DNA of 64,000 nt. Source: Takakia lepidozioides (Eukaryota; Plantae; Bryophyta). The notes beneath the pieces were generated by a model. The model was not told where the DNA came from. It was given only the letters and a program-made list of their open reading frames with translations, and did no database searches. Below are positions 22,993-50,500 of this stretch, piece after piece. A program made the position numbers and the translations under genes. Positions within the stretch are counted from its first letter, which is position 1; the number at the start of each line of letters is the position of its first letter. The DNA lies in contig CM060731.1 of assembly GCA_030704615.1 (NCBI GenBank), forward strand, positions 27,094,001 to 27,158,000, given 5' to 3'.

Positions 22993-26964
<3,972 letters not shown>

Positions 26965-27897: not shown

Positions 27898-28305
27898 TAT
27901 TGTTTGTGAGAAGTAGTTGGCAACACTTTCCACATGCAAGCTCAAGAAAGATACACATCTACTAGACACAGAGACTTGTGTCAGCACCTTACAAGCATAG
28001 TATCATAAAGACTAGAACAATATTAGTGACCATGGGAAAAGATACATTGGCTGACACAGCCTGCTCATGCTAATCTAGTGACCCACACACTCAGCTTCAT
28101 TACAGTGTCACTACAGCAGTAAACCTTAGGACCAAGGTATGTACTGGCCTCACACATCTGCAACAGCGTACAAACACATGAGGGCTAAAAGATAGCAGAG
28201 CCCATTGCTCTCAATGCTTAAGTAACTAGCACTGTAGTTACTAGTAACTACAGTGTCAAGAAGGATGACTCCAGTGTAATCTTGATGAGTTCTCTACAAC
28301 CAAAA
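27898..28305 (-). repeat. Copia 3' LTR
   Basis: Direct repeat of 32681-33087 (about 8 substitutions and 1 indel by eye). Preceded on the minus strand by the purine tract GAGTGGGAG. Confidence 0.95.
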
Positions 28306-28352
28306 CTCCCACTCACTGAGTCAATCCTTCTGTGAGATAAAAAAACGAAGAA

Positions 28353-31300
28353 TCACACACTTGTGAGACCAATCAGGCCTCTCATTCGTTGAAACTTCTC
28401 GGTCGTGAGCGCTTTCGTCAAGATATCAGCTCGCTGGTTTTCTGTGTTCACATAAATCATGTTGATAGTTCTAATCAGCTGGTGCTCTCGAATCAAATGG
28501 TACGAGATGTCAATGTGCTTTGTCCGGCGGTGGTACTCAGGATTGTGTACCAAACGAATGGCAAACTAGTTGTCACAATGCAATGGGGTAGGTCCACCCT
28601 GCACACAACCAATGGATCGGAGCAAACTGCGCATCCATATCACTTCTTTGGTGGTTGTGCTTGCAGCAATATACTCTGCTTCTGTTGTACTGGTCGTCGT
28701 GCAGGCTTGTTAACGGCTCATCCAAGCTATTGGTCCTCCATTGAGGAACAATATGAGGCCAGTCCTGGACTTATGGTCATCTAAGTCCCCGGCATAGTCT
28801 GCATCACTGTAGCATATCAGATGGTTGTCTTGAGCACTCTCGCCATATGTCAGGGCAAGATTTGGGACTCCTTTGAAGTATCTCATGATTCTGGAGACGG
28901 CTTGGCAATGTGCTTTCTTCGGGTCAGAGCTATACTTGGCAGAACTGCCTATAGCGTATGAGCTGTTTGGTCTAGTGCTGATGGAGGCGAACTGTAGGCT
29001 TCCAATGATCTCCTTGAATGGGAACTTGACCTATACTTCTTTGTCTCTGCGGCTGATCTCGTCGAGGCGGCTGTTTGGGTCTACAGGTATAGTCATGGCA
29101 TGACTCTCGTCATATCCATAGTTGTGCAGCTTCTTCATGATATATTTGGTCTGATCAACCTTCAGAATCTTCTTGGGGCGGTCTCTTGTGATGTGTAATC
29201 CCACATAGACTTCGGCATCTCCTCTGGTGATTTTGAAAGCTCCAGTCATATATTCGAGGATGTCATCGGCAGCTTTGGAACCTTCTGTGCATATGAGACC
29301 ATCATCTACAAAAATCGTGAGGATGATGATCGGGTCAATGTCACGATAATAGACACATGGGTCAGCAGGGCTGGCTACAAAACCGTAGGTCTTCAAGAAC
29401 TCATCGAACCGCTTATTCCACATACGGCTTGACTGCTTCAGCCCACAAAGAGCTTTTATGAGTTTGCATACGGCCTTAGGATTTTCTGCATTCTCAAAAC
29501 CTAATGGCTGCTCCATGTAGATTTCTTCCTCGATGTTTCCATATAGGAACGCTGTTCGAATGTCAAACTGTGTGATATTCATATCCTTCACGGCTGCAAT
29601 GGATAGAACAGCTCTAATTGAATCAAACTTTGCTACTAGCGAGAATGTCTCGGTGTAATCCACTCCAACTTTCTGGGAGTAGCCTCGTGCACAAAGCCTG
29701 GCCTTGAATCTGTCGACCTCCCCTTCTGCATTGTATTTTAATTTATAAACCCACTTGCAGGTGATCTTCTTTCTTCCAGGGGGCAGGTCTGTGAGTACCC
29801 AAGTCTCGTTCTCCATAAGGGAACAATACTCATCATGCATCGCCTCCAACCACTTTTCTCTATCTTCCGAGTTCATAGCTTCATAGAAACTCTCGGGCTC
29901 TTCTTGTGTGATGTTCTCATATTCAGCAATACATGTTCTTGTCTTTCCAGGGTAGAACCAGTCACCATATAGGTCTGGTTTCCTTCTGATTCAAGGCCGT
30001 AGCTCCTCAGTAGTTGTCATATCATTCCCAGATGTCTGCCTTGTGGCTTAAGAGCACTCCCTACGGCTTCCATTTGCTCAATGTGTGTGTCATCTGGGAT
30101 CTCCCACTGGTTGACAAGTTGCTCGGGTTCTTGTGAGCTTGGCCTACTTCCTTCAGGTTGACTCTTACCCAAAGAAATGATCTCCTGGTTTTCTTCTGGT
30201 TCTGAAGCTGGCAATTGAATTTCCATTGCAGCAGGTACTTGCACTCCCACTGCCACTGCCATCGGTACTACTGGAGACATGTCTTCATCAAACTCAATGA
30301 CATGGCTGGCTGCCCAGGCATCTCTATCTGGAGACACTCCAGACATATTGTCTTCGTTGAACACAACATCATGACTTTCATGAATCTTTTGCTTATCGTT
30401 CAGCCACACACAATATGCATTGATGGTTGGACTGTAGCCCATAAAGACTCCCTTCACACTTTTGGCATCTAACTTCTTTCGAAGTTCTCTCGGAATGTGA
30501 ACGTATGCATCACAGCCAAAAACTCTCATATGGCTTACGGATGGCTTTTGCTTTGTCCATATTTCAAATGGTGTCATTTCCTTCAAAGTGCGTGTTTCAG
30601 TGCGGTTGAGTGTATACACCGCTGTCTGGGCTGCTTCTCCCCAAAATCTTGGGTGCACTCCACTGTCATATATCATGCTTCGAACTAGTTCAACGATGGT
30701 TCTGTTCTCTCTTTCTGCAGCCCCGTTCTGTTCCGGTGTATATGTTGTTGTGAGTTCTTGCTTCACACCAATGTCTGCAAGATAGGCTTGGAACTCTTTT
30801 CCAATGAATTCACCGCCTCTGTCTGATCTGAGCGTCCCAACACTATGTCCAGCCTCTCTCTTCATCAGTGCGACATAGTTCTTGAAGCATGTCAATGCCT
30901 CTGACTTCTTTGAAATGATGTATAGGACCCTGTAGGATGAGTGATCGTCTTTGAAGATTATGAAATAGCTGGCCCCTCCCAATGACTTGGTGCTGAAAGG
31001 GCCACAGAGGTCGGTGTGCACTATACCTCCTATCTGTGATGCTCTCACTCGTATCTCCTTCTTCGGGAAAGAACTTCGTTTGGCCTTCCCGAAGACACAT
31101 CCTTCACAGAACTTTGGCTCCTTCTACTTGTCAGTATCAAGCCATCTACCACATCTTCCGCTGCCATGCGTTGTATCGCCTTACAGTTGACATGACAAAA
31201 TCTTCGATGCCATACCTCAAGACTCTTGGTTGCTTCACCTTTTGTTTCTCCGACAAATGACCCTACAGACGGTCGAATAACCTCCTTCTTAGTGTCTGCG

Positions 31301-32569
31301 ATGTACACTTTGTGTTTCGGTGGCTGTGGGCTTATGTGCAAATGCCACATATCATCAACTGCAGTCCCTTGCATGACAATCGCTCCATCATGAATAAGAA
31401 AACATGCAGTCAAGGTATGCATGGTGGTGCAACCTGCTTTGATCGCTCTTCTAATCGAGAAGAGACTTCTCCCAAGGCAGGGAACGTGTAGGATATTTTT
31501 CAGCACTGACATGTGCCATGTTTCACCAATCTTGATGAGGACGTCAATGTCTCCAACTCCGGCTATTAGAAACTTGGAGTTGCCCACTCCATGAACCATC
31601 TCTTGATCCTTCGATGTGTCACGATAATTCTCGAACCACTCACCGTGCTCAGTCATGTGTTGGGTGCATCCAGTGTCTGAGATCCATGCATCTCGATGCT
31701 CCTCCTTGGCAAGCTTGAGATTGGCCATCCATGCCTTGAAAGATCCACCAGTCTTTGGTTGTTCTTTCTTGCCTTTCTTCTCCTTCTGACATTCTCTTGC
31801 CCAGTGTCTTGGTTCACCACAGTTGTAGCAAACAGGAGTATCCTTCAACTTTTCAATCTCTGCCTTTCTTGCTTCTCTCTGCTCCTGGGTCAAATATGGG
31901 CGGTTGGTTGCACCGCTTGACATTGATCCAGTTGTCTTCCCCTTTGTCTTGGCCACAAAAACCTTCACTGCCTCTTCTTAGACGCCGGCTTCGATCTGCT
32001 CTCCTCGGTCAGAAGTCGAAGCGTCAAAAGGTCAAGATCCTTCATTGGACCTTCAGGGACGTTGTCCCAAGCTGATCTGAAATGTTTCAAATGGGGTGGC
32101 AGGTTGTACAAGACCTTGGCAATCATAGCTGAATCATCGAAGTTGTTGTTGTTCATGCCTCTGAGCTGCTTGATCACCATCTCGATTCGTCCAAGAAAAT
32201 CAGCTATGTCCTCCCCCTCCTCGATTTTGCATTTGAAAAAACTCTCCTGTAGCTGATGGATGTTCTCAGTAGCTCTCCTCTCATCCAAAAGGCAAAGGAA
32301 GTATCACAGCTCATCAAGTTCTTTAGCAATCTTCTGTCAACGGCTTGACAAAGTATTCCAAGCGCCTTACTATCTTTCTTGTCCCAGGCAGCTATCTCAG
32401 CAGGAGTGGTTGGTACTACGTTATCCCCAACTGGCTCTCGAACTACCGTCCCGTCCACTATACCCCACAACTCTTTGCCACGAAAAATGGCTCTCATTTG
32501 GTATTTCCACATGGCAAAACCCTCACCATTAAAACGCTCAATGTTACTAAGCTTCTTCCCCTGATCCAT
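28353..32569 (-). pseudogene. Copia gag-pol polyprotein, frameshifted and with in-frame stops
   Basis: Gag (FNGEGFAMWK; knuckle CYNCGEPRHWAREC), PR (WISDTGCTQHM), GAG-pre-integrase (WHRRFCH), INT (HTDLCGP, LRSDRGGEF, TPEQNGAAER), RT (KARLCARG, FVDD) and RH (HRRTKHIDI, ADILTK). Split over several ORFs. Confidence 0.95.
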
Positions 32570-32667
32570 CAGATCTCTCTCTTCCCAACTAGAAACAACA
32601 TAAAAGAACTGAGACTAAGCTTTAAGATGACGTCTAAAGATAGCTAAACGCACAGGGATACGAGACG

Positions 32668-32680
32668 TGGGCCAATAACC
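32668..32680 (-). other. Copia primer-binding site, half-tRNA(iMet) type
   Basis: GGTTATTGGCCCA directly abuts the 5' LTR. It is one mismatch from the GGTTATGGGCCCA half-tRNA-Met PBS of copia/hemivirus-type elements. Confidence 0.8.
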
Positions 32681-33087
32681 TATTGTTTGTGAGAAGTAGT
32701 TGGCAACACTTTCCACATGCAAGCTCAAGAAAGATACACATCTACTAGACACAGAGACTTGTGTCAGCACCTTACAAGCATAGTATCATAAAGACTAGAA
32801 CAATATTAGTGACCATGGGAAAAGATACACCGGCTGACACAGCCTGCTCATGCTAATCTAGTGACCCACACACTCAACTTCATTACAGTGTCACTACAGC
32901 AGTAAACCTTAGGACCAAGGTATGTACTGGCCTCACACATTTGCAACAGCGTACAAACACATGAGGGCTAAATGAGAGCAGAGCCATTGCTCTCAATGCT
33001 TAAGTAACTAGCACTGTCGTTACTAGTAACTACAGTGTCAAGAAGGATGACTCAAGTGTAATCTTGATGAGTTCTCTACAACCAAAA
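32681..33087 (-). repeat. Copia 5' LTR
   Basis: Direct repeat of 27898-28305, followed on the + strand by TSD TTAGC. Confidence 0.95.
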
Positions 33088-34522: not shown

Positions 34523-34710
34523 TGTCGTGCGCATACATATCGCTACACAACTACATCGCTGTCCAAAACCACACAACACATGTGCACACCACACACTAGT
34601 ATACCACTAGTCCACCACTAGTCCAGCCACTAGTCCAACCACTAGGCTACAACTAGTCAGTCACTAGGCTGCCACTATGCTGCCCACTATGGCAGTCACT
34701 AGTCCACACA
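34523..34710 (-). repeat. Extra copy of the first 188 bp of the element A LTR, placed outside the 3' LTR
   Basis: Matches 35031-35218 with 2 substitutions. Contains short CCACTAG repeats. Confidence 0.92.
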
Positions 34711-34711
34711 A

Positions 34712-35218
34712 TGATAAAGAAGAAGAATACAAGCACGAGCTCACAAATCTGAAGCATAAACTCATGCATATATAACCTCATCACTCAAATACAAGTCAAG
34801 CCAAGTGCACCCCACGCCATGGGGAATCCACAGTACGGCGCCATAGCTAGGCGCGGTGAGGCTCAACTCGAGAAAGATGAGCCTCCCGCGCTTGCCGTGA
34901 AGATAACCACTCCAGGGCCTAAATCTGCCTTGACCCCTGGATTGACACTTGGGCCAATCCCAAATGTCAATATGTAAAAGCTAGCTATTTCCTAGCTAGT
35001 TTCACACTAGTGGTAAAATAACTTGACAGCTGTCGTGCGCATACATATCGCTACACAACTACATCGCTGTCCAAAACCACACAACACATGTGCACACCAC
35101 ACACTAGTATACCGCTAGTCCACCACTAGTCCGGCCACTAGTCCAACCACTAGGCTACAACTAGTCAGTCACTAGGCTGCCACTATGCTGCCCACTATGG
35201 CAGTCACTAGTCCACACA
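34712..35218 (-). repeat. Element A 3' LTR (507 bp, TGTG...ATCA on the minus strand)
   Basis: Starts 2 nt after the PPT with TG. Ends with CA at the same point where the 5' copy abuts the PBS. Confidence 0.8.
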
Positions 35219-35477
35219 ATCGCCCCCCTAGCTGGTGCTTAGGTCCATCTAAGTCCAGGTAGCCACAAGATGTGATAGGACCATAGCCTCACTAAGTCCT
35301 CCACCACTATCCCTACTACACTCAAACTCGATAGATCAAGAGGCCGGGTGCAAGAGTTGCCCCATCATTAGTCGCCGTCTTGCAACCTGTGAACTTGAGC
35401 TTGGGATCTCATGTATTGACTCCTATGAGCTTGGCCTCCCATGTCTTGTTAGCTGCCTCCAGTCATGTCCACTGCCA

Positions 35478-37045
35478 CTATCCCAAGCAGTGTGGACACA
35501 ACCAATCTCCGTCAGGAACCTTCTCAAGAGGTGGTGTCAAGCATCCCATATGCCAACCCCTTGAGCATCGATCACACACCAGCATGGTGGCTGCCCCTTT
35601 GGCAGACCCACAAGCATGCACCTCAAACCTGCAGGTACCACTGCCAAGTTTGGGTCAACTCTGCCATCGACATTGGGAAGGTGACATGGCGCACAATTAC
35701 GCACATGGTCCTTCCAAGTCATGCCATCCCGACCCTCCAAGATCAGGACCCCTGAGGGCAACACCTCTCGAACCCTCAGAATAACACGCCCTGCAGTAAC
35801 ATCCAGAGTCGTAGGAGCAGTCTGCTGCAAATAAACATAGTCACCAGGGCTAAACCTCCGAACCCCAGGACGATATCCTCCACCACGTATAGTGGCATAC
35901 CTCAACGTATCACGGTGATGTGCAATGGCAAGGTTCTCAAAAGCCATGGGCATGACTTTCTTGAACAACTCTGCACGCTGATCACATGCACGTACCCACA
36001 CGTCCGGATCGTCAAGGTTAAGGACTTGAGCAGTGTCCCTACGAATGGCTGCAGGCAAATCCGGCTCTTGGCCAAAGAGAAGGAAATATGGTGAGAAGGA
36101 GGCAAGTGATGCTTGTTTGCTGAACCTGTAGCCCATGGCTAACCAAGGAACCTGAAGATCCCAATCTCCTAGGTGTCCGTTCTGCAAGCCATACTTGCGC
36201 AAACCCCTCTTCACCATCTAAACAACTCTCTCTGCTAAGCCATCGGCCTCAGGATGATCCCGAGAAGTGGTGCGGTGGTCTATCAAGGCTTTATCACACA
36301 AAGCCTGAAACTCCCCCAAAAACTCTCTCCCTTGGTCCGTGAATACCTCAGCTGGAGCACCAAATCGGCTAAGCACACGATCCAAGAATGCATACGCAGC
36401 CCCCTCACTAGCCTTGTCAGGCAATGGAACCAACTCAATCCACTTGGAGAAGTGCTCCACCATCACCAACACATATCTGTGGTGGCGCATAGTCAGTGGC
36501 AACGGTCCTGCGAAGTCAAGACTCCACCTGTAGCCCAATCCCATGATTGGTAAAGGATGCAACTGTGGTGTAGGGGCGTTGAATGAAGCACGCACCCTGT
36601 CACACACCATGCACCTAGCCACGAACTGTTGCACCTCTGTATGCATACCACGCCACCAATACTGCCCCTGCAGTAAACTGTGAGTGCGTCGCACTCCAAA
36701 ATGCCCCAACTCCTCATGGGCATGCCGCACTAACCGTGCACGCTGTGTGGGGTGAGGCACAATCCTCACCCGACCATCCTCCCACACTCGAAGTAGGTGT
36801 ATCCCCTCCCACTTGAACCTCTTGGCTCGTTGCAGGATCCGATCCCTCTCCCTGGCAGTCACAATGGCTGCCGTGTCTCCCGTGCGGAGGTAGTCCAACA
36901 CAGCCGAATCCTCATGTATATCTCTGGCACCACCTAGCTCATCACTAGCCTCAGGGTCCTCAGACACTCCGTCTACAGTCATCCCTGTTGTAGGTCCAAT
37001 CTGACCTCCCGATGCCAAGATACACAAAATGCAGATGCGTGCCAT
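35478..37045 (-). pseudogene. Element A integrase with C-terminal PHD finger
   Basis: Zinc finger H..LGH..CMVC, core WSLDFAGP / TDQGREF / PEADGLAER, and FSPYFLLFG. With one base restored the tail reads CMLCGSAKGAATMLVCDRCSRGWHMGCLTPPLEKVPDGDWLCPHC (C4HC3 PHD, 35478-35620). In-frame stop at 36218. Confidence 0.92.
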
Positions 37046-38472
37046 CCCGGCACCATCTCCTCGTCCGTCTCACCATGCCACCGAGCTCCAGTGTCATCCT
37101 GCTGGCTCATGCATGGATTGCGACTCAATCCATCCGCATCCCGATTGACCAAACCCGGTCGATGCACAACCTGAAAGTCATACTCCTGGAGTATAAGTGC
37201 CCACTGTGCAAGCTTCCCCGTAAGCTTGTCTGACTCCATCAACCACTTGAGTGGCTGGTGATCCGTGACAAGGGTGAAAAGATTGCCGTATAGATAGCAC
37301 CTGAAGTGTGCCACGGCCCACACTGCAGCTAAGCACTCTCCCTCATATGAGCTGTACTTAGCCTCTGCAGCGTTGTTCGAGCGGCTAGCATAAGCCACTA
37401 CGAACTCTCTTCCCTCATCATCCACCTGTGTGAGCACCGCTCCAAGCCCCAGCATGCTCCAATCCGTATGCAGCTGAAAGGGACGCCCCCTGATAGGTCG
37501 TCTCAAGATAGGCGCCGAGGTCAACCTCGCCTTGAGCTCTTGAAAAGCTCGTTCCTGCTCATCTTCCCACTGCCACTCCTGGTCCACCTTGGTCAGCTTG
37601 GTTAGAGCCTTTGCAATGGTACTAAATCCCTTGACAAACCGTCTATAATAGTTTGCCAACCCCATGAAAGCTCGAACTCGGCTCACATCCGTGGGGCGTG
37701 GAATTTGTGCAATGGCCTCTACCTTAGTCTGCTGTACCCCCAATCCTCCAGGATATATCATGTGACCCAGATACTCAATCTGGTTGTGGAAAAACTTGCA
37801 CTTCCCCGGATGCAACTTCAATCCGTGCGCTCTCAAGCGCTCCAATACCACCTGAAAGTGTCTCTCATGCTCCTCCATCGTAACACTAAAGATGATGATG
37901 TCATCTATGTAGCACCGAGCAAAGTCCACCCCTGCTAGAATCCTATCCATGACTCTCTGAAACTCTGCAGGAGCATTCTTAAGCCCAAATGGTAAGAACC
38001 GCCACTGATATAGGCAATCCTTGCCCTGCTCATTGATCCCCCAGAATGCCGTCTTCTGCTTGTCCGCCTCCTTGATTGGCAACTGGTGATATCCGGATCG
38101 TAAATCCAAAGTGCTAAAGGCCTTAGCATGCCCGATGGCATCAAAGATCTCCTCTGGTGTTGGCATGGCATACTTATCGGACTTGGTCTGACGATTTACA
38201 GGCCGGTAATCACCGCACATACGTCTCTCCGTCCAATTGCCATAGACATCCTTCTTGGCTGGCATCACTGTGGCTGAAGCATACTCTCCACCAGAGAGCT
38301 CCACCAAACCTGCCTCCCAGAGATCTTGAGTCCTCATCTGAATCAAAGACCTCTCCATGTCACTGTATCTATAGGGTCTCCGAAAGATTGGCGTGTCAGT
38401 GGCCAACTCAATACGGATCTCTTGACCCTTCAGTGCTCCCAAGTCCTTCAAACTGAAGGCAAAGCAATTCAT
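36979..38472 (-). CDS. Element A reverse transcriptase and RNase H
   Basis: RT motifs RMCGDYRPVN, LDLRSGYHQ, LPFGLKNAP, YIDD. RH motifs HTDWS..GLGAVL, YASR, TDHQPL, ADGLSR. Confidence 0.97.
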   Translation of the reverse strand: MNCFAFSLKDLGALKGQEIRIELATDTPIFRRPYRYSDMERSLIQMRTQDLWEAGLVELSGGEYASATVMPAKKDVYGNWTERRMCGDYRPVNRQTKSDKYAMPTPEEIFDAIGHAKAFSTLDLRSGYHQLPIKEADKQKTAFWGINEQGKDCLYQWRFLPFGLKNAPAEFQRVMDRILAGVDFARCYIDDIIIFSVTMEEHERHFQVVLERLRAHGLKLHPGKCKFFHNQIEYLGHMIYPGGLGVQQTKVEAIAQIPRPTDVSRVRAFMGLANYYRRFVKGFSTIAKALTKLTKVDQEWQWEDEQERAFQELKARLTSAPILRRPIRGRPFQLHTDWSMLGLGAVLTQVDDEGREFVVAYASRSNNAAEAKYSSYEGECLAAVWAVAHFRCYLYGNLFTLVTDHQPLKWLMESDKLTGKLAQWALILQEYDFQVVHRPGLVNRDADGLSRNPCMSQQDDTGARWHGETDEEMVPGWHASAFCVSWHREVRLDLQQG

Positions 38473-38899
38473 GTAAGCCCTCAGGAACCGCCGTATACGT
38501 CGTCTCTCTCCTCCGGTGACAATGGGTCCAATGTCAGGCTCCCAATTGTCCTCCGTAACTGCAACCTTAAGTCCAGTGGGCTTAGAGGTAGAGGACGCGT
38601 CCCGTGGTTGCTATGTTGCAACCTCTTGAGCAGTACTCCCTGCCTGCTCAGTCAATGACAAGGCCTCATCCTGCCCATCATCTCATCCTTGAGGACCTCC
38701 TCAACCCGAGAAGAATCCCCAACCTCATCCATCACAGCCGCCTTGGCTGCCAACTCCCTCTGAACCTCGAGCACCTCCCACGTGTGCCATGGATGCATGC
38801 ACCCCGTGGTCCTCACATGCTCGCCCCCACTCACTACCTGTACCGTCTCGGTAGGCAGAGAGACCATTGAGGGAAGTGTACTCCGCACTCTGCGTTGCT

Positions 38900-39850
38900 C
38901 AGCCAGAGCCAAGCTGATAATCCAGGTCAAGCAATTGAGATCCATTGCTTGCCCCAACACTTGACGACGTGATGCCTCAGAAAGAGACGACACCGCCGTG
39001 GTACCAGTGGTAAAACCCATTGGCCGCTCACGCTCGTCAGCATTAGGCTCCACTAACTGCTGCAACTGAGCATCCCACAGGAGGCCAGGTCCACTATCCC
39101 GGAAAGCATGCGATCCTGGGAAGCTGAGCAGTGTAGGTAATGTTGCTCGTGGTTGACCCACCTTGTTGACCACTGCCAAAGGCGAACGGTCATCGTGTCT
39201 CACACGCTGACTGTGTCCAGAATGTTATCCACTGTGAGATGTGCTGGCCGCTTCACCCCATCAAATGCACGCTTGAGCAGTGCGGGTGGCATCAAGTTAG
39301 TCCACCATAGCCGTGGACGATGAGCCCGTGACCCCACTGTAGCTGCATCTAGCAACACTGCTGACCCAAGCCACGACCGGACTTGATGCACAGTGGCCAT
39401 CACCCTGGCCCGAGAATCGCCCATCAGTGGCACATTCTCCAAGATGTATGCTGGAGATACAGCTTGATGAAGCTGCAAGTGGCGCAAAACCCGCACCATC
39501 TCCCAAAACAGACCCGACCTCGAGTCTCGCAATCCATTGCCATGCCCGGCTGATGAATGCCCTTGGCAGGGCCAACCTGCCACTACCAGATCAATGGAGC
39601 CAACCCGCTCCAAATCCTGCGCCCCCAGCAACGAAATGTCTGCTGGCAAGGCCTGCTGATATCCACGAATTGCAGATACCGACAACAACTCAGGGTACCG
39701 CTGCACCAACTGAGCAACATGGCGAAGTGAAACGCGTCGTGCAGTCTCATCCCTCTCCACATACAGGTAACGCCGAACTCGTACACCTGCTTGTAACACA
39801 GCAGCCAATCCGGTGTTGATCCCGCCAAACAAGTCCAGAAGACAAATGCC
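38900..39850 (-). pseudogene. C5 cytosine DNA methyltransferase domain (DNMT3-like) inside element A pol; one frameshift near 39200
   Basis: Motif I LLDLFGGI, II YVERD, IV AGWPCQG (catalytic Cys), VI YILENV, VIII AHRPRLWWTNL, IX ERERPMGF and X RRQVLGQAMD, in non-permuted order. Confidence 0.93.
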
Positions 39851-40126
39851 TTCATCCGGATACTGCCACACAATAGGTGTGGTGTCCAATGGAGACAATT
39901 GAGGTGGTCTTGGTGCAATCCCCACACTCTCCTCCTCTCTTGGCGGTACAAAAGCCTCCACCCAAGCTTGTTGCACCCGTCGATCAGCATCCCGCTGCAA
40001 ATCCTTGCTCGTGCCCCACAATGGAGTCTGAGCAACCATGGTAGGCAACTCCGCCATACCATACATTCATCCTGCTCTCCCGGAGGTGGTACATCCTCTG
40101 AATGAGCATTGCCCTCAAGCAACTCT

Positions 40127-42694
40127 CTAGGCCAACTCACTGCCGCTGTGAATGCTGCTAGTGTTGGCATCTTGCCTCGCTGGGCAACCGCAACTCCTCC
40201 TATGAACGTCACAGGGAGCTGCACACGCCGGCCCTCCCCTGATGCCATGCAGGCCTATAGGAAGCTGACTCCTCCCAAAATCCAGGTGAAGCCCATGGGG
40301 TACAACACTGCCCCACCAACCAGGATATCGTATGAGACTGCGTCTGTCACAATGGCCTTGGCTCGCATCACTGAGCCATCTGTAGGGTGATCCGGCGTAG
40401 TCTGATAGCCAACTCACGCCGTGTCATGCCCCGAGCCTGCTCCGATCCTCCCAGAGACGTCTGTATCTGGAAAGGACAAGGCTCCATATCCGCCTCCGTG
40501 AGGCCCAAGCCTGCAATAGCAGCTCTGCCCAGCATCAATGGCTGAGCTCCCGAGTCCAACAAGACCGCAGTGGCCGGTACCTCTTGCCTGCCGGTCCACT
40601 CAAACAGAAAATGTCATCCTGGTTGTCTAACATGACAACTCCAGGTGTCACCATGGCGCGCTCAATGGCTGGCCTAGCTGGCAGCTCCATCAATCTGGCA
40701 GCTGCAGCTTGCCATGGCGCCGCCGTGGCAGTCTTGACCCTCAAATCCGAGGATCCCTCCGGCACTACACCTCCCACTATCTCCGCAGAAGATGAAGTAA
40801 CCTCCCCACTCTCACAGAGTGAAGCTGCCAGCCTGAACACCTCAGCTGGTTTTACCCCCGGCGTCGCAATCATGGTAGCCGAGAACAATGGAGCCTGGCA
40901 CACAGATGTGGCCGCTCCTAGCAGCACACTAGCTGCCGTAGCCTTGGCAACACTAGGTAGTGGTGCTACCCGTGTAGCTCTCCCCAATGGCATAGTAACC
41001 TCCGCTCGGTAACCGTCGGGCGAGAACTAGGTGCCATGGATGGCGTCGACACTGTCTCCGCCAATGTGAATGACTGAGGAAGCCTAGCCTGACGGCTTGC
41101 CTCCCCACGCTGTGGATCCAACTCCACCTCTGCACTGTGGCTCAGGAACTCGTGCTGCTCCTCGAGTCACGGCTGCAGCAGACTCCACCTGCACTAGTGG
41201 TAGTGCTGCTCCACACATGAATCCCATGCCTCCCATATCTCCTCCCTCAGGAGCAAGAGGTGGACCATCCGGCCTTAGAGCCGGTACCACCTGAGCTGTA
41301 GCCATGGCAGCGAGCCTCTGCTCTAGCTGCTGAAGCCGGTTGGCCATGCCTTGGTCAACACCCTGACCTCCGCGTCCTTGGCCATGTTGAGCTTGCCCTT
41401 GGCCTGCACCTCGTGGCTGGCCACCTCGTCCTCTCTGGGCTGCTCCACCTCGCCCCGGCCACCATTGTTCCCTTGGAACTGGCCTGGGCGCAACTCAGGA
41501 TGCAAACCATAACACTGGGCCTCTCCATGCCCGTGCTTGCCACAATGCCCACACTGCAACTGTGCAGGCTGTGCATGTGCCGGCCCTTTGCCTCCCTCCG
41601 GGCAATCCTTCTTGACATGGGGTCCTCCACATGTCCAGCACACCACATCCGCCCGTTGTTGGCCAGCAAATGAAGGGAGAGACCCCTGCATCTGAGGTCC
41701 TCTCTGCCCTTCCCTGAGCTTCACCTGAGCCCCCTTGTTGCCTTGAGCACGTTGAGGTAGTGGTTGGCTAGGAGCACCACTACCCCGTGGTGTCTCCTTA
41801 GCAAATCCCACCATGACCACTCGTTCCTCCACCATGTTGAGCTCTATCCGCTCTGCCAGCAAAAACACATTTGCTAAGGTGGGTTGGGCACTTGTAGGAG
41901 AGTTGCATCCCGCACCCTTCTCCTCAGCTCCTTGTCCAATATCCCATACCAAATTGGACTGCCTGAGCTTCCGTAACCCTGGGTTACATTTATCAAGCGC
42001 CTCATGCGAGTGAAAGCCTCCCTCAAGCTCTCAGTCGGCTTCCGTTGGAACTCTTGCAAGCTCCGCAACTTCTCTGTCCTCACCCCTTGGTAGTTCCCTC
42101 TCAACTCTTCGAAGAACTCCACAACAGGGTTGAAGAAGTAGTAGGCACAGGTGCTAGTGCAAGTGTGGTAGTGGCTTGGGTGGACGTCGTAGCTACTGTA
42201 CCACCAGTCCCACTGCTACTTGCTGAAGCTGCCGGGTGCAGCGGCAGGTGAGCCACTGCCCTCGTGGCTCTAGTGCCCCTAGTGATGGAGACATAGTCAG
42301 GTGACCAGTACATCCTCCACTCCTCGATCTCAACCTCATGCCCCCGCCTGAACTCATGGTAATCATCCATAGGCGGCCCCTCAAGGTGCTGAAACAGCCC
42401 CTTCCATGCCATGAAAGGCGTAAATAGTTGTGGATTGCGCATTTGCTGCAAATCACACCAACTATCAAACTCTTGGATAAAATCATCCAACTCGATGGTG
42501 CCCACCGCCCCAGAGTACCTTCGTGGCCCCTTGGTAGCTCCATACATTCCTCCATTGTGTCCCACAACAATGGCAAAGAAACAACTTGCACCGCCGGTAT
42601 GAGTCCTCCTGATCACAATCCGAATCAGAACCTTCCGTGGAAGACACAGGAGATGAAGGTGGCCTAAACCGCACACCTCGTCTCGTGTACCCAC
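40127..42694 (-). pseudogene. Element A gag and aspartic protease, frameshifted
   Basis: Gag-like LDDFIQEFDSWC and LQEFQRKPTESLREAFTR, two CCHC knuckles (CWTCGGPHVKKDC, CGHCGKHGHGEAQC), and protease VLLDSGAQ at ~40550-40568. Confidence 0.85.
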
Positions 42695-43429
42695 TAGTAT
42701 CGCTAGTGCTCGAAACCGGCACTGTCCCCAGCAACTAGTGGCACCTCCGTGTTGACACTCAACCGGTCATGAACATGTCCCTAACCCCCTCTCCACAAGG
42801 TAACCGGGTAGAGAACCTGTTGCGGCTTATGGTTTGGAATACTAAGTTCCTAACATAGCCTACACCCTGTACCTGCATCCACCGCAAGCACTCCTATGGT
42901 TGGCTGGTCGTCACCTCCAACCTCACCCAGGAGAAACAGAAACAATGATGGTCTGGCTGGTCATCACCCCAGCCTCACCATCGACAGCATGCTCTAGGAC
43001 TGGCCGGTGATCAAATCCGGACCAATCACCTATAAAAACAAGCGCCCACACAAAACTAGCATGGCGCACAGTCAAGCATGCAGGTATGGAGGGGATCCAC
43101 AAGAAATCAGAATGACAACTCCCCCACACCAAAAAACAACTCCACGGTGTTGCTTCTGCAATGACACCCCAGCCCAACCCGGACTGACTCTTGCCTCCAC
43201 CTACGGAAAGGTCTTGGCCTAATGAGAGGGTAGAAACTACGAGGAAGAGAAGCTAAAGCAATGCCTAACCCCAGCATGCCCTCATCCCAACACTCTTCCT
43301 TTCCTCTCTTCCCTCACTTGCATGACCATGGGAATATCATGAAGATACTCCTCAAACCGCCCTCCACGAGCTTCAAAATTCGGCTTCCAGACCACATGCT
43401 AGTCCTTAGGCAGTCCACTAGTGCCTCCA

Positions 43430-44270
43430 CGAGTCAACACAGGCCGTCCACAGGTCAACACGGGCCACCACAGACCAGCACAGGCCCACACAGCTCACTG
43501 GTCACAGCCGTCACAGTCCCACAGGCCACTGGGCACAGCCTGTCACAGCCCCTCACAGCCAGTCACAGCCCCAAAGGCCTCAGGCACGGCTTGTCACAGC
43601 CCCTCACAGCCCCAAAGGCCACGGGCACAGCCTGTCACAGCCCGTCACAGCCCCACAGGCCACTGGCACAACCTGTCACAGCCCCGCACAGCCCCAAAGG
43701 CCACGGGCACAGCCTGTCACAGCCCTCACAGCCCGGTCACAGCCCCACAGGCTCAGGCACGGCCTGACACAGCCTCTCACAGCCATCACAGCCCCAAAGG
43801 CCATGGGCACAGCCTGTCACAGCCCGTCACAGCCCCACAGGCCACTGGGCACACCTGTCACAGCCCCACACGCCCGTCACAGCCCACAGGCCACTGGGCA
43901 CAGCCTGTCACAGCCCCTCATAGCCCGTCACAGCCCCACAGGCCTCAGGCATGGCCTTCACAGCCCCTCACAGCCCATCACAGCCCCAAAGGCCATGGGC
44001 ACAGCCTGTCACAGCCCCGCACAGCCCGTCACAACCCAAATGCCTCAGGCACGGCCTGTCACAGCCCCCTCACAGCCCATCACACCCCAAAGGCCATGGG
44101 CACAGCCTGTCAAGCACCCTCACAGCCCGTCACAGCCCCACGGCCACTGGGCACAGCCTGTCAAGCCCCGCAAGCCCGTCACAGCCCCACAGGCCATAGG
44201 GCACAGCCCGTCACAGCCCACAGGCCACTGGGCACAGCCTGTCACAGCCCGTCACAGCCCGTCACAGCCC
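43430..44270. repeat. GTCACAGCCC / GGCACAGCCT minisatellite in the element A leader region
   Basis: Dozens of 10-11 bp units built on CACAGCC, with a higher-order period of about 55 bp. Confidence 0.95.
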
Positions 44271-44428
44271 ATCCATGGCCGCTCTGGCAGTTTAGCCATT
44301 TGTCCAAGGGGTTTAGCCACGCCAAGCTAGGGTTTGTGTCTCTTGGACTCTAGGCTTCTTCCACCGAGCTATGGCGGCTGTGAGGAAATCAGCAAGGTAT
44401 TCTTGCTCTTTCGGCTCCCACACATCAC

Positions 44429-45511
44429 TGTTAGAGGACTGTAGGGGACTTAGACACTTATACGGGATCTGTAGGGTACCCTTAATTTTTGCACAGACTG
44501 AGACAAACAGGAACCTTAGGGGTGACAGCAGCGCACTGTAGAGGGGGGTTACATAGCCCACACAGCCGACACAGCAGTCACAGCCCACACAGCCAACACA
44601 GCCGTCACAGTCGTCACAACCCACACAGCCAACACAGCCCGTCACACAGTCGTCACAGCCCACACAGCCGTCACAGCCGTCACAGCCCACACAGCCGACA
44701 CAGCCGTCACAGCCCACACAGCCAACACAGCCCACACACCCGTCACAGTCGTCACAGCCCACACAGCCGTCACAGTCGTCACAGCCCACACAGCCCACAC
44801 AGCCCGTCACAGTCGTCACAGCAGACACAGCCCACACAGCCAGTCACAGCCCGACACAACCAAACACAGCCAGTCACCGCTTGACACAGCTGTCACGATA
44901 ATAGGGAACGCAGAGTAGGACAGGGAACGACTGTGGGGAACAACACCAGTGAAGGGAACATGTTAGTTCACATACGACGGTTAGAGAGGGAAACGGTTAG
45001 AACCGCGGATAGGAGGATAAAGGGAAGAACGGGGAATAGGAAGGGGATCATTATTCGGGGAGGACTTCGGAGTCAGGCGGGAGCGGAGATCGGAGAGCAC
45101 GATGAAGGAGGAAAGAGGATTAGTAGATGCTTGTTAGATGCAAAGCTGTAGGGATATTGTAGAGGAGAATAGAGACACAATGGCTTCGGCCTGATACCTG
45201 ATAAATCATAATCTGATACTTATACGATACAATCACACTGTGTAGAGAGATCTGAGTGAAGCTGTGGATTGAATGGAGGAGTTAAGGAAACCGATAAATT
45301 GATGAAGCAAACTGATACTTAATTATCAATGGTAAGGTAGCTAAGATGAATGCGGAAAAGGAAACAAATAGGAAACACCCCCATGATACACTAGCTGTAG
45401 GTCATGACTGATTGTTCTGCGCGGGCTGAGTACTTAGAGATTTCCAACTCTTCTATCTTGGAGTTTCCGCCTCGGATAGCGAAGGGATGGGTGAGTAAAA
45501 GCCGCGCGACA
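44429..45511 (+). repeat. Element B 5' LTR (1083 bp) with internal CACAGCC minisatellite at ~44550-44890
   Basis: Direct repeat of 57059-58140. Only a few substitutions outside the minisatellite. Confidence 0.97.
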
Positions 45512-46099
45512 TTTGGCGACCATACTGGGGACCTGGGACATGAACAACCAGATGTGACAGGCATCTGGTGGGATCATGGTGGTTGGACCATTAAAGAGTT
45601 TGAAGTGAATCAAATTCCCTGTGGAACGAAGGAAGAAAGATTGTCCAAACAATTCTTTCAAAGGTTCTTGGAATTGCCAGACGGATGTAAAGAAAATATT
45701 CTTAAACGAGTGCATGATGCTGATCCAGAATGGGGTCTGGAGAAAGGAGTGATAAAGATTTATCAGGTAGCCTGTAGAGGAAGAGCACGTTGGTTACCAA
45801 CATTAGTTTATGTGATAGCGTTGCTATCCATTAAACGAGTAGAGTTTGAAGGTTGGGAAGAAAGAAAGGTGAATGTTTATACTCATATGCATGAAGAGCT
45901 TGTACTGGTAAAGAATTGGATTCCAAAGGATATTTTGTGGATCAAACTCACACCAAGAACAGCTTTTCAGACTTGTTTGCCATATGGTTATATGGTAACG
46001 GAGACTTCAAGTATAGCCAAGGGTGCATTGAAGCTTGAAAGAAATCCAGGCATATACGAGAGATATTACAGAAGAGAGTTTTGGTTATTGCCACATTAA
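45404..46099 (+). CDS. Element B extra 5' ORF, unknown function
   Basis: 231-codon open frame upstream of gag and in the same frame. No recognisable domain. Confidence 0.5.
   Translation: MTDCSARAEYLEISNSSILEFPPRIAKGWVSKSRATFGDHTGDLGHEQPDVTGIWWDHGGWTIKEFEVNQIPCGTKEERLSKQFFQRFLELPDGCKENILKRVHDADPEWGLEKGVIKIYQVACRGRARWLPTLVYVIALLSIKRVEFEGWEERKVNVYTHMHEELVLVKNWIPKDILWIKLTPRTAFQTCLPYGYMVTETSSIAKGALKLERNPGIYERYYRREFWLLPH
45514..45532 (+). other. Element B primer-binding site (tRNA-Arg-like)
   Basis: TGGCGACCATACTGGGGAC lies 2 nt after the LTR and resembles TGGCGAC.....TGGGGA Arg-type PBSs. The tRNA identity is inferred. Confidence 0.7.
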
Positions 46100-46120
46100 A
46101 AGAAATGAAAGACATGGGAC

Positions 46121-47521
46121 ATGAGTGATGAAAGAGAAGCTAGACGACAAAGATATTCATCAAAAAGAGAAAGCTATCTGAAAGCTAATTATCCATATCT
46201 TTGGGAGAGAGGAATAGACATAGGGGAATCATCTGGACCTCTCACACCATCAAGATCAAAAAGTGCATCACCTATACCGGAAGAACTAGAGTTGGATGCC
46301 ACTCCTTCTGTTTCTTTGCAAGAAAGATTAAGGGAATTGGTACAGGAAGAAGATCAATCACGAGGTGAAAGATCTGAGGTACATCCTTGGATAAAAGACT
46401 TGACAGAAATCTTTGATAAGAGTTGGCATGGAACACCAAAAGCAGGAACTCCAGTTTCTGAAGCAGAAGATGAAGAAGGAGATGAGGATGTGGCAGAGCC
46501 AACGGAGAGTTCAGACTCTCCAACACCATTACAGTTGAGTTACATGAGTGAAGAAGAAACCCAAGGGCAGAACTTGGAGGATGAAAACAGAGAGAAGAAA
46601 TTGGAAGAGGAAGAATATGAAGAAGTAGACCCAACAGCTGAGGTTGAGACTACAACCAGGACATCCCAACCCGTTGGACCTGGATCAAGTGGAGCACTTG
46701 GATCACAGGCCAACGAAGGTGTCGGCTCAGGGGGATCAGGCGGGCTGCCTGGATCTGGCTCTGGGGGGACAGGGAGTGTGGGAAGTAGTGCAACTGAAGC
46801 TGGGAATACTGTGAATATCGTGGGGCCAGAAGCAGGGAGTGCTCAAGGGCCACCACTTGGTGGAAGATCCACCACAAAAACAACAGGTCCAGAAGGACCA
46901 GCACCAGCAAGGGTGCCAGCACCTGTCAGTGGGCAGAAGGTAGGGCCACAGATGGCGTTACAACCAACACGGGCAAAACCACCCTTTCCAATATATTCAG
47001 GAAAAGGGGATCCCGATGTACACATTAGCCAATTTGAGCACATGTGTATAGTGAACAATGAGAATGGCGATGATGCCAAGATGAGACTGTTTCCTTGTTC
47101 ACTTATCAAGAAAGCAAGTGAATGGTATGCAAGATTCCCTGATAATCATTTCCTAACCTGGAATGGCTTGAATACAGCATTTCGAAATAGGTTCAGGACA
47201 AGTAAAACTGAGGATGAAGTGTATGGAAGTTTACAACAGCTGAAGCAGAAGAAGCATGAAACTGTTGAAGAGTATATGGAGAAGATGGAATTGATGATGA
47301 AAAAGCTGGCTGCAGTACCAGCACCCGGTTTACAGAAGACTTGGTTTGTGAGTGGACTAAGACCAGAGTTGCAGAAGAAAGTGGATATGTTACCCCATAA
47401 TACAGTGGAGGAGGCATTTGAAACTGCAAACAGAATTGAGCAATTGGGAATGCTCAGGAGAGAGAAAAGGAAGATGAGGACTCTGAAGATGAGTCAGATG
47501 AAGAAGAAGAGCAAGAACTAA
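46121..47521 (+). CDS. Element B gag
   Basis: Retrotrans_gag core FPIYSGKGDPDVHISQFE...LFPCSL..KASEWY...LKQKKHETVEEY...FVSGL. Frameshifts near 47470 into the downstream ORF. Confidence 0.93.
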   Translation: MSDEREARRQRYSSKRESYLKANYPYLWERGIDIGESSGPLTPSRSKSASPIPEELELDATPSVSLQERLRELVQEEDQSRGERSEVHPWIKDLTEIFDKSWHGTPKAGTPVSEAEDEEGDEDVAEPTESSDSPTPLQLSYMSEEETQGQNLEDENREKKLEEEEYEEVDPTAEVETTTRTSQPVGPGSSGALGSQANEGVGSGGSGGLPGSGSGGTGSVGSSATEAGNTVNIVGPEAGSAQGPPLGGRSTTKTTGPEGPAPARVPAPVSGQKVGPQMALQPTRAKPPFPIYSGKGDPDVHISQFEHMCIVNNENGDDAKMRLFPCSLIKKASEWYARFPDNHFLTWNGLNTAFRNRFRTSKTEDEVYGSLQQLKQKKHETVEEYMEKMELMMKKLAAVPAPGLQKTWFVSGLRPELQKKVDMLPHNTVEEAFETANRIEQLGMLRREKRKMRTLKMSQMKKKSKN

Positions 47522-47547
47522 AAAGAAAGAGTAAGAGAAAGGAAAAG

Positions 47548-50500
47548 TTGAAGAGGGATAACTATGAGAAAAGATTGGAAGAAATCTTGAAGAAGTATGC
47601 CACAGAGGCTGCAACACATTGGAGGAAGGGTGTATGGTGTGCAAAGTGCCAGAATGAAGGCCATACCACTACAGAATGCCACATGAAGGAGAAACACTGT
47701 ACTATCTGTAAAATGGATAACCATTCTACTGAGAATTGTTACTACAACAGAAGGACAGCTGCAAGAGAACCTAGGCAAGTGAGGGTGCATCAGGTGCAGC
47801 CCCAGCCAAGAAGAAGCAATGATCAGGACCACTATGGTAGGTCTGGTGGTTATAACAATGGCATGGAAGGGAGAGGTAATTCAAGAGGGAATTACCAAGG
47901 AAATTCCAGAGGCAACTATCAGGGTAATCCAAGGGGGAATTACCAGCCCGGGAATCAGGATTATAGAAATAATCCAAGACCAGACCAAGGGCGAGGACCC
48001 AATGGTGAAGAGCTATGTTACTATTGTAATCAGCCAGGACATCGCAAGGCAGCCTGTTCATTCTGGATAAGACACCAGAATGAGATGAGAGCTCCTGTGA
48101 ATGAGGGCCCAGTGGTGGCAGCTCACATGGTTAGGCCATGTGTTGTACCAGAAGTAAGTACAATGATAGTAACAAGAAGTAAAGCCAAACTAATACCTCC
48201 AGTAGAAGAGGAAGAAGATGAGACTGGAAGTGGCAATGATATGCCTGAAGATGAAGAGACTTGGAAGGATGAGAAGGAACTGCACAAGGAAGTGGCAGAT
48301 ACTATAAGGGAAATGCAAAAGAGTACGGATATTCCTGTGGCAGATTCCTCTGATTCGGATGGAGAAAAAGAGGGGAGTGAGGAAGAAAGGAAAAAAGAAG
48401 ATGCAGACATGCAAAGTAATGAAGAGACTTTGGCTGAAGTAATATGTCAGACCAAAGCAGAAATTACCATTGGACAGCTATTAGCTGTGGCACCTTATTG
48501 TAGGCACAGGCTGTATCAGGCAATCAATCGAATTGCCCAAGAGACAGGAAACACAGACCTGAACAGCAAGGTGACCAGTTATAATGTGAAGCCGGAAGGG
48601 CGAGAACCAGTCATGGACTTTGATGATTCTATGCCAGTAATCCAATTGAGAATTGGAAGCACAGAACTAACTGATGTACTGATAGATGGTGGTTCTGGAG
48701 TAAATATCATGACAGACCAATTAAGGAAGAAGCTTGGTCTAAGTAACATGAAACCAGCCCCATTTACAGTAACAATGGCAGATCAAAGAAGTGTACAGCC
48801 ATTGGGATTAATAAGAGGAGTTAAGATACAGATACAGAAAATGATCTTTATGATCACAGTAACTGTATTAAAAATGGATGAAGTCATGGAGGCTTACTCC
48901 TTATTATTGGGACGTCCGTGGCTGAAACAGGCAAGGGTATTCCATGACTGGAATTCTCAGTTACTAACTGTGCATAATGGGATGCACGAGATACAAATTA
49001 CCACAAAGAAATCTAGTAGATTACCTGCTACAAGAAGACCTCGAGGAGTCAGAGAGTATGACTGGAAGGGAGGACTGGATGAGGAGCAGGAAGCTACCCT
49101 ATTTGCTGCACACCCAGAATGGGAGCAGGTTGCAGAGATGCGGCTGGAAAGCCTAAGTTGTTTGAGAGGTATCTGCTGTGGTGTAGTGACAGCAACACCA
49201 ACTGAAGAAGAAACCAGCATTTACCCATCACATTTCTATGAAGAAAGAGAAGGAGAAATAGAAATCCTAGAAGAACCAGCCACTGTGAGCTTACAGGATG
49301 AAGTGGTGACTGGTTGGACAATCACAGCTGATGAGCAGGTGAGAGAAGTAAATGTGGGAACTCAGGAGGAACCGAGGATGGTGAAAGTAGGAGCTGATTT
49401 GGAGCCGGAATTCTTCGAAGAAGCTAAAAGCTTGTTCATCAAATACAGAGATGTATTTGCTTGGAGCTATGAGGATCTAAAAGGGATACCACCTGAAGTC
49501 TGTCAGCATAAAATTGAACTGGAACCAGGGTCAGTACCAATCAAGCAGGCGAGGTATAGAATGAATCCCAACTACGCACAGAAGGTTGGAGAAGAGATAA
49601 AGAAGTTGGCTGAGGCTAAGTTTATATACCCAATAGAGTATACAACTTGGTTGTCACCCATTGTTATAGTTCCCAAGAAGAATGGCAAACTAAGAGTATG
49701 TGTGAACTATAAGAAGCTGAATGCTTGTACGAAGAAAGATCCTTTCCCTTTGCCATTCACAGAAGCAGTATTAGACACTGTGGCAGGCCATGAGATGTAC
49801 TCATTCATGGATGGCTTCAGTGGTTATAATCAAGTGCAAGTGGCAGAAGAAGACCAAGGGAAAACAGCTTTCATCACAGACTGGGGGGCTTATGCATACA
49901 AAGTCATGCCCTTTGGACTTTGTAATGCACCAGCGACCTTTCAGAGAGTGATAAGTGAATCTTTTCAAGAGTATCTGGATGATTTCATGCAGGTGTTTTT
50001 GGATGATTTCAGTGTGTACAGCTCTAAGAATGAGCACTTGCATAAATTGGAGTTATGCCTGGCCAGATGCAGGATGAGAGGTCTGGGCTTGAACCCAGAG
50101 AAGTGTACTTTCTGTGTGAACTCAGGGGTGCTTCTGGGACACATTGTGTGTAAGAAGGGACTCCTTGTGGATCCCAGGAAGACAGAGTCCATTAAAGCCT
50201 CTCCACCACCAGTGAATGTTAAGAGTTTAAGGAGATTCCTTGGGCAAACCAGTTATTACAGAAGATTTGTCAAAAGGTATGCACAAATAGCAGCACCATT
50301 GAGCAAGCTTCTGAAGAAAGATGCAGTGTTTGCATGGACAGCTGAATGTCAACAGGCGTTTGAGGAACTTACACTGTCAGTAACAACTACACCTGTGCTG
50401 ATTAACCCTCACTGGCATGTAGTATTTCATGTTCACTGCGATGCATCAGGAGAAGCGTTGGGAGCGGTGTTAGCCCAGAATGTTACAGGGAATATAGATT

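Follow-up and report, generated by a model that had tools for sequence, protein, structure and literature searches.

A Gypsy Retrotransposon in Takakia lepidozioides Carries a DNMT3-like Cytosine Methyltransferase between Its Protease and a Conserved Stop Codon

The window analyzed here is the whole 64,000-nucleotide stretch of Takakia lepidozioides contig CM060731.1 from position 27,094,001 to 27,158,000. A Gypsy element was found on the minus strand at approximately 34523–59629, and it carries a DNMT3-like C5-cytosine methyltransferase (DNMT) between the protease and the reverse transcriptase (RT). The element is arranged as repeat A, leader, coding region, purine tract, repeat B, a 2-nt spacer, repeat A, and repeat B, and the leader is split by a nested LTR element. 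The features of the methyltransferase-bearing element that follow all lie on the minus strand. The 5′ repeat A (59427–59629) retains the last 203 of approximately 317 nt, without the TG end, and is 99% identical to 34712–34914; because it is truncated, the target site of this element is unreadable. The 13 nt directly following repeat A (59415–59427) are the exact reverse complement of 59593–59581 inside A and may serve as a self-priming site. The leader contains a tandem array of approximately 10-nt units (43400–44330).

The coding region begins with a frameshifted Gag (41330–42555) with two zinc-knuckle-like motifs. Its match to Retrotrans_gag (E = 0.003) lies below the cut-off, and by eye it resembles the N-terminus of the Marchantia protein P0004; it is also similar to L035, an intact relative of the element. 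The aspartic protease (40245–40595) is also frameshifted and has the motif LLDSGA at 40562–40545; Asp_protease_2 matches ORF1 of L035 with E = 2e-4, again below the cut-off. The methyltransferase domain (38922–39853) is followed by the in-frame stop TAG CAA CCA (38605–38613), by RT and RNase H (37027–38610; RVT_1 E = 6e-33, RT_RNaseH E = 2e-35; RT motif YIDD at 37911–37900), and by an integrase composed of an H2C2 zinc finger and an rve core (35640–36997). A PHD finger (35481–35620; PF00628, E = 3e-11) is located C-terminally on the integrase; it is frameshifted off in the window copy and in frame in L035 and in proteins P0049–P0053. A polypurine-tract-like run (35221–35233), the same in L037, L041, L042, L082, and L035, stands just before the first copy of repeat B (35031–35220, 190 nt), which ends in CGACA and is 99% identical to the terminal repeat B (34523–34712), the 3′ end of the element, with the same CGACA ending. 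Between the two copies of B lies the 3′ repeat A (34712–35028, 317 nt, TG..CA), and the palindromic B/A junction CGACA-GC-TGTCA (35024–35035) presents two integrase-type ends separated by the 2-nt spacer. A 2-nt-spacer junction was found in 10 related loci of both clades described below.

The window copy of this Gypsy family has decayed and, as assembled, is dead. A 10-nt loss near 39210 splits the methyltransferase over two frames, a 1-nt loss near 38673 shifts the frame of the linker to RT, and single-base losses also break gag, protease, integrase, and PHD finger. These lesions are absent from the family contigs in public sequencing runs. Some of the single-base losses may be assembly errors, since 6 of the 10 listed sit in base runs of 2 or more.

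The nested Gypsy element (44429–58140, plus strand) is unrelated to the methyltransferase-bearing element and not part of it. It has 1.08-kb LTRs (44429–45511 and 57059–58140) that are 97% identical, a 5-bp target duplication (ATCAC), gag and pol, an upstream ORF (45401–46099), and long downstream ORFs (52749–57017) without a Pfam match above the cut-off. CACAGCC-rich arrays of 9–10-nt units (43400–44330, 44560–44900, 52260–52750, and 57130–57520) are shared by the leader of the methyltransferase-bearing element and by the LTRs and body of the nested one. A young Copia element (27897–33087, minus strand, LTRs 98% identical) is found just downstream of an intron-split gene (22969–26964) that combines an LTP-like cysteine-rich N-terminal exon with a receptor-like kinase (Pkinase E = 2e-16; LTP_2 E = 5e-4, below the Pfam cut-off). 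This gene and the nearest named homologues of the methyltransferase-bearing element, from liverworts and Sphagnum, support a land-plant host, probably a bryophyte. The ORF at 63187–63999 resembles a fragment of a hAT transposase, and the ORF at 123–659, which has no Pfam match, looks like a PPR fragment.

The sequence-only reading of this locus had described an intron-free and complete catalytic domain with six motifs in the linear, DNMT3-like order, on the same strand as protease and RT and between them. The placement and the absence of introns were borne out by the motif positions and by the length of the domain, which is 932 nt in the window copy and 942 nt in L035, where it occupies 3784–4725. 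All six motifs are present in linear order on the minus strand (I, 39841–39821; IV, 39577–39560; VI, 39439–39431; VIII, 39322–39305; IX, 39035–39024; and X, 38957–38940), and the profile and fold comparisons given below also place DNMT3 first; as for completeness, the window copy has all of the motifs and is frameshifted, not intact. The PF00145 search proposed in that reading returned a match for the N-terminal frame of the domain with E = 1.7e-13. The proline of the motif IX string ERERPMGF is private to the window copy, and position 39023 differs in nearly all of the depth of three runs.

Among solved structures, DNMT3A/B/C were the top matches of the homologue profile (E of about 1e-14), compared with 5e-6 for DRM. 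A structure model of the L035 domain, built from 66 sequences in place of an earlier 5-sequence model with a pLDDT of 51, reached a pLDDT of 96, and its best Foldseek matches were DNMT3A/B (E = 5e-20, TM 0.74). A wide structure search with the same model gave DNMT3B a Z-score of 28.1 (rmsd 2.4 over 262 residues, 26% identity), with lower scores for bacterial M.MpeI (24.7) and MET1 (17.3). On profile and model, the closest sequence and fold match is DNMT3, and not DRM, MET1/CMT, DNMT2, or a bacterial enzyme. Membership in DRM was rejected: the motifs are linear and not in the permuted order of VI–X followed by I–V. In a tree with one host DNMT3 and four phage enzymes, the element enzymes formed their own clade beside fish DNMT3 with a support of 0.92. 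The viral contigs yielded 30 distant matches (27–53% identity over short stretches), four of which served as the outgroup, and an ESM Atlas feature search returned only generic C5-methylase clusters. No PWWP, ADD, or DUF3444 domain was seen with the element domain. The catalytic loop is PCQGHS in the element enzyme and PCNDLS in DNMT3A, and because of this difference a preference for CG or CHH cannot be assumed. The ratio of observed to expected CpG is 0.52 for the element and 0.66 for its DNMT domain, against 0.22 for the nested Gypsy, 0.53 for the Copia element, and 0.43 for host gene DNA; as a trace of self-methylation, no CpG loss was detected in the element beyond that of the neighboring DNA of the window.

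The possibility that other copies lack the domain had been named in the sequence-only reading as an outcome that would argue against it, and the domain proved to be widespread. Among 4,883 candidates, 48 longer homologous proteins were found. The best are 68–79% identical and include records from Calypogeia fissa and Marchantia polymorpha, followed by Sphagnum and Closterium; most of the liverwort and Sphagnum records are 57–79% identical, those from Closterium about 40–45%. A metagenome scan yielded 600 pattern matches, 331 of them confirmed as relatives and 80 kept as loci, and a profile search of 50%-identity representatives returned 424 proteins at E up to 1e-30. No record named Klebsormidium was present among the homologues found, including two cluster look-ups of 20 proteins. 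In sequencing run X1, 92,019 contigs align to the element. Coverage extends to all 30 bins, those of the DNMT domain among them, in three runs; contig depth over the element is not copy number. None of the 15 joints listed, from a total of 19, skips the domain. The runs of a second organism, B, contain 0.23–0.29 of the words of the element, and the X8 contigs match its gag and integrase at 95–99% identity, so the family either is common to a close relative or moved recently.

The catalytic residues were compared in 81 sequences (the 80 loci and the window), 78 of which could be mapped at motif IV. The catalytic cysteine is kept in 73/78, the glutamate of ENV in 72/76, and the asparagine in 77/77, and G93, C96, Q97, E139, and N140 are invariant in 66 sequences. 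Two clades were distinguished: the PC clade of 33 sequences, with proline before the cysteine position and the window among them, and a sister clade of 45 with glutamate or lysine there, in which the motif IV proline is replaced by glutamate in 44 of 45. In the DNMT tree, the window copy groups with Calypogeia, Marchantia, and a close clade of loci with a support of 0.98. The sister form (L055:10751–11689, 44 other loci, and Closterium P0035) has WECQG at motif IV and ENT for ENV in one continuous frame. The Calypogeia record P0138 has this form as well, which shows that a single species can harbor the two clades together.

Neutral evolution, or loss of the PC and ENV residues, had likewise been considered as evidence that would count against the sequence-only reading. 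The residues are kept, apart from the proline in the sister clade, and the substitution ratios indicate that purifying selection acts between lineages. These ratios come from hand-chosen pairs, with L035 as the reference for mapping codons and a filter on local identity. For the window against 11 close loci, pN was 0.16–0.18 and pS was 0.75–0.81, which is saturated. The dN/dS of the DNMT domain was determined to be 0.115 over 314 codons for L035/L036, 0.19–0.37 for six sister-clade pairs, and 0.07 for one distant pair. Three pairs of young close-clade copies gave 0.56–0.82 for DNMT and 0.26–0.64 for RT; high values in young copies are as expected for decay after insertion, yet they exceed those of RT. 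The DNMT and RT trees of 28 sequences have 8 well-supported splits in common and no conflict, which fits one old acquisition of the methyltransferase; part of this agreement is automatic because the sequences are related. A search for intact frames, also proposed at the outset, led to L035, which is naturally intact apart from a single stop codon.

In a larger radiation (P0139–P0157 and P0168–P0306), this DNMT stands after RT/RNase H and ahead of integrase, frequently together with a PHD finger. Of 139 new representatives, 73 have DNMT after RT or before integrase, 12 have PR-DNMT or DNMT-RT, and 54 consist of the domain alone. One PR-DNMT record, P0162, is labeled Haematococcus, and the label suggests a family range beyond the streptophytes. 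P0165 (1,198 aa) is of another retroelement type, with a DNMT-like domain that lacks the catalytic cysteine and ENV fused to RNase H. P0103, a family RT-integrase-PHD protein labeled uncultured cyanobacterium, is probably a eukaryotic contig in a bin.

The domain had initially been assigned to the inside of pol. In this lineage it is instead the C-terminal part of the Gag-PR frame, and a family-invariant stop (38613–38611) precedes RT. The linker TAG CAA CCA (38613–38605) is in frame with the downstream RT; no variant at ≥8% was detected on these nine bases in four runs, and positions 38603 and 38616 vary. Family contigs restore the frame from the DNMT domain to the TAG. The architecture is thus one long Gag-PR-DNMT frame, TAG-CAR-YY, and then RT-RH-integrase-PHD. 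In L035, a 1,360-aa ORF1 (Gag-PR-DNMT) is followed by TAG CAG TTA and a 1,047-aa ORF2 (RT-RH-integrase-PHD), with no further stop in about 2,400 codons. A stop followed by CAR-YY is present at the corresponding position in 19 of the 21 PC-clade sequences that cover the junction (16 TAG, 3 TAA); the scan required CA after the stop, and an unbiased walk found the same stops. The remaining two junctions are disrupted, and one of them shows a stop in the unbiased walk. The Marchantia and Calypogeia records P0004, P0007, and P0002, available as proteins only, end 86–88 residues past the domain, and separate RT-to-PHD proteins exist among the homologues. One contig of run X12, guessed to be RNA, covers the junction and is not counted as evidence of expression.

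An origin of the stop as a deamination artifact was rejected for the PC clade, where there is no sense codon among the 19. The recurrent stop site of the sister clade has TAG in 7 of 28 sequences and a sense codon in 21, with L055 open for 847 codons, and here the TAG was accepted as a deamination artifact. The sister clade and Closterium P0035 encode DNMT and RT in one frame, so dosage at the level of the capsid protein is not required by the whole family. Within the PC clade, the exact UAG-CAR-YYA was found in three sequences (window, L035, and L036), and 16 close-clade loci have CAA CCC or CCT, matching in five of six bases; because these 16 are near relatives, the stop has been seen in about three independent lineages. 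No downstream RNA structure that might stimulate readthrough was found in the two sequences folded (folding term −0.3 kcal/mol). Because DNMT ends the Gag-PR frame ahead of a conserved stop, the methyltransferase is likely made at the level of the capsid protein.

The termini were compared in 11 loci chosen for a B/A junction: six have the full layout, three have B-A-B, one has A..B-A at a contig end, and L035 has one copy only. The ends are TG..CA. Among the six full loci, three have perfect 4-bp target duplications, one has a duplication with one mismatch, and two have none. The junction CGACA-NN-TGTCA is found in both clades. No TGG-type tRNA primer site was found after the 5′ A. In 4 of 8 loci, 13–15 nt following the 5′ A are complementary to the middle of A (15 nt in L062, L079, and L093). 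Self-priming is used by REM1 of Chlamydomonas and by Tf1 of fission yeast, and the complementarity found here resembles that of Tf1. If B-NN-A acted as a long repeat, standard reverse transcription would give B-A-coding-B-A, and a circle cut at the first CA-NN-TG would then give A-coding-B-A-B.

We propose that a particle-borne methyltransferase methylates the cDNA of the element before insertion, for which we judge the chances to be even. Quite probably, most ribosomes would stop at the UAG and a minority would read through, so that far more DNMT would be made than RT and integrase. By analogy with other retroelements, the enzyme would enter the particle as a fusion to Gag and may be cut loose there by the protease. 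The enzyme could then methylate cytosines of the new cDNA, so that the copy would arrive marked for the maintenance methylases of the host, a step whose odds we also place at about one half. More speculatively, reverse transcription might be self-primed from repeat A, the A-coding-B-A-B form might arise when integrase cuts circular cDNA at the internal CA-NN-TG, and the PHD finger might steer insertion by reading a histone tail. The combined picture is tentative and, taken whole, rather doubtful: a Gypsy group of ancient origin in the green lineage, still alive in land plants, that would use a leaky stop to load each particle with capsid-level amounts of its own DNMT3, prime itself, methylate its circular cDNA, and integrate it at the internal palindrome under PHD guidance.

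Several observations stand against methylation of the cDNA, namely the lack of extra CpG loss, the one-frame relatives, the exact CARYYA in only three sequences, the high dN/dS of young copies, the absence of target duplications at two of six loci, and a self-priming match of at least 13 nt in only four of eight. The available text of PMC5890265 bears on both sides: KnitGypsy-Dnmt3 of Klebsormidium gave no methylation in yeast, a result called inconclusive by its authors, and the related SymbioDIRS-Dnmt3 methylates CG in yeast. An active enzyme might instead work in the nucleus, on insertion flanks or on resident copies in trans, seeding heterochromatin or limiting the spread of the family while the PHD-bearing integrase targets chromatin. 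A writer and a reader do occur within one element, DNMT, integrase, and PHD finger would form one chain in the readthrough product until it is processed, surplus ORF1 enzyme could act in trans, and such roles are discussed in the accessible parts of PMC5890265. However, the fusion partner of most of the enzyme in this lineage would be Gag rather than integrase, and we regard nuclear action as unlikely, if by no means negligible. Methylation might also serve the replication route, by protecting a long-lived circular cDNA or by marking which of the two CA-NN-TG junctions is cut by integrase. The junction kept in both clades contains a CG, all full-length loci show the same permutation, A-coding-B-A-B, and DIRS elements with the same repeat layout also bear methyltransferases, as the portions available of PMC5890265 and bioRxiv 10.64898/2026.05.21.726589 describe; the circular intermediate on which such a role depends is itself conjectural, and the chance we give it is small.

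It is also conceivable that the domain is kept for a noncatalytic or RNA-directed role, such as nucleic-acid binding in the particle or RNA methylation. The inactivity of the Klebsormidium enzyme in yeast (PMC5890265, in the text available), the change of the motif IV proline to glutamate in the sister clade, the lack of CpG depletion, and a Gag-level dosage that suits a structural function would agree with this. The cysteine, the glutamate-asparagine pair, and the motif IX arginine are nevertheless kept across deep divergence, and the fold is closest to the DNA-directed DNMT3, so that such a role seems improbable. A separate question is whether the stop is read through at all. ORF2 might instead be expressed after reinitiation, or from an RNA of its own or a spliced one; DNMT would in that case still be made with Gag. 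Reinitiation is a rival in the close clade because an ATG follows two codons after the stop in 15 of its 16 loci with a stop, and the transcript-derived ORF2 record P0050 from Coleochaete starts with methionine and is without DNMT. Such an ATG is missing in L035/L036 and in the window family, which nonetheless keep CAR-YYA and the frame, and expression without readthrough has in our estimate a fairly low probability. That the domain is a one-off capture or a neutrally decaying passenger in the window copy might be argued from its frameshift and from the high dN/dS of young close-clade copies. The presence of the domain in liverworts, Sphagnum, Closterium, and many unnamed records, the match with the RT trees, the intact L035, and the lack of a skipping joint among the 15 listed make this extremely improbable, and a one-off capture was rejected on the wide occurrence, the congruence with RT, and L035.

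Why retrotransposons keep an enzyme that normally silences them has been an open question since 2018, in part because the hosts do not lend themselves easily to experiments and no activity of the Klebsormidium enzyme was obtained in yeast. Since L035 is intact and the genetic model Marchantia polymorpha has the family, with a copy of the Mp4g09160 type, it can now be tested whether the enzyme is active, whether it is loaded into particles, and what becomes of premethylated insertions. A leaky stop predicts many copies of DNMT per RT, and the termini provide a testable model of how an element with an integrase may gain DIRS-like repeats. If active, the enzyme would add a so far unnoticed source of de novo methylation to bryophyte genomes, in which the proteins are annotated as hypothetical genes. 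The combined picture, if true, would mean that a retrotransposon writes its own epigenetic state and replicates by a nonstandard circle route.

Retroelements that use stop-codon readthrough include SIRE1. In plant viruses such as tobamoviruses, type I readthrough takes place at the motif UAG-CAR-YYA (PMC3542737 and PMC5382211, as far as their available text extends). The element agrees with these in the stop, the six-base context, and the lack of a conserved downstream structure; it differs in that the putative readthrough stop separates a Gag-PR-DNMT frame from RT. A first ORF of Gag-PR is known in plant elements from the accessible text of PMC6317226. According to the same text, Chlamyvir and Tcn1 are likewise Gypsy elements whose integrase bears a chromatin reader, and assignment to these chromoviruses was rejected, for ORF2 of L035 has a PHD finger and no chromodomain match. 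DIRS/Ngaro, defined by a tyrosine recombinase and the lack of a DDE integrase, was rejected as well, given the rve integrase of the element and the 4-bp target duplications in relatives. So was Troyka, which on the available description (PMC12440569) has CG..CG termini, 3-bp duplications, and animal hosts, whereas the element has TG..CA, 4-bp duplications, and a plant host. Like the host DNMT3 enzymes (animal DNMT3A/B, and plant DNMT3 with DUF3444 as described in the portion available of PMC6453930), the element domain has linear motifs and finds its best structural match there; it differs in having no PWWP, ADD, or DUF3444 and no introns that were seen. EpiLTRs also carry a DNMT, which differs in being sister to DNMT4 and having a DAM domain (bioRxiv 10.64898/2026.05.21.726589, available text).

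The main text of the plant LTR survey PMC6317226 has no mention of methyltransferase or PHD, and land-plant copies are not reported in the available parts of PMC6453930 and bioRxiv 10.1101/2021.11.30.470311. In the openly accessible article text, no paper was found that describes the leaky stop, the termini, or copies from land plants. The expectation of the sequence-only reading that such elements are not standard in embryophytes agrees with the literature searched, in which no embryophyte report was found. Two features were overlooked in that reading, the PHD finger and the A-B-A-B repeats, and the repeats link the element to the published Klebsormidium family, which lowers its novelty. In the accessible text of PMC5890265 (de Mendoza et al. 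2018), KnitGypsy-Dnmt3 of Klebsormidium nitens is described from that genus alone, with DIRS-like repeats and a Dnmt3 domain placed in the Pol ORF. The name "streptophytes (Gypsy-DNMT3)" appears in the part available of bioRxiv 10.64898/2026.05.21.726589, and that of PMC12344493 also cites the streptophyte case.

SymbioDIRS-Dnmt3 of Symbiodinium (PMC5890265, text available) likewise has a Dnmt3-like domain in a retroelement polyprotein, A-B-A-B repeats, and no CpG depletion; it differs in its tyrosine recombinase in place of a DDE integrase, its CG methylation in yeast, and its dinoflagellate host. The closest known system is KnitGypsy-Dnmt3, which was compared through the accessible part of its published description. 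Both are Gypsy elements of PR-RT-RH-INT type with a DDE integrase, an intron-less and unrearranged Dnmt3-like domain with key residues, and the DIRS-like arrangement A-coding-B-A-B (here in six full-length loci and, with the 5′ A truncated, in the window). Purifying selection is a further likeness, with dN/dS between lineages here of 0.07–0.37 or a saturated pS. KnitGypsy-Dnmt3 differs in having DNMT and RT in one ORF, whereas the window lineage has an in-frame stop and the sister clade and Closterium P0035 are one-frame; the available text on KnitGypsy-Dnmt3 is without a PHD finger, termini, target duplications, or priming site. The Gypsy-DNMT3 type in Klebsormidium is thus already known; not encountered in the literature text searched, and in this sense new, are the land-plant copies, the position of the methyltransferase at the end of the Gag-PR frame, the conserved stop, and the termini.
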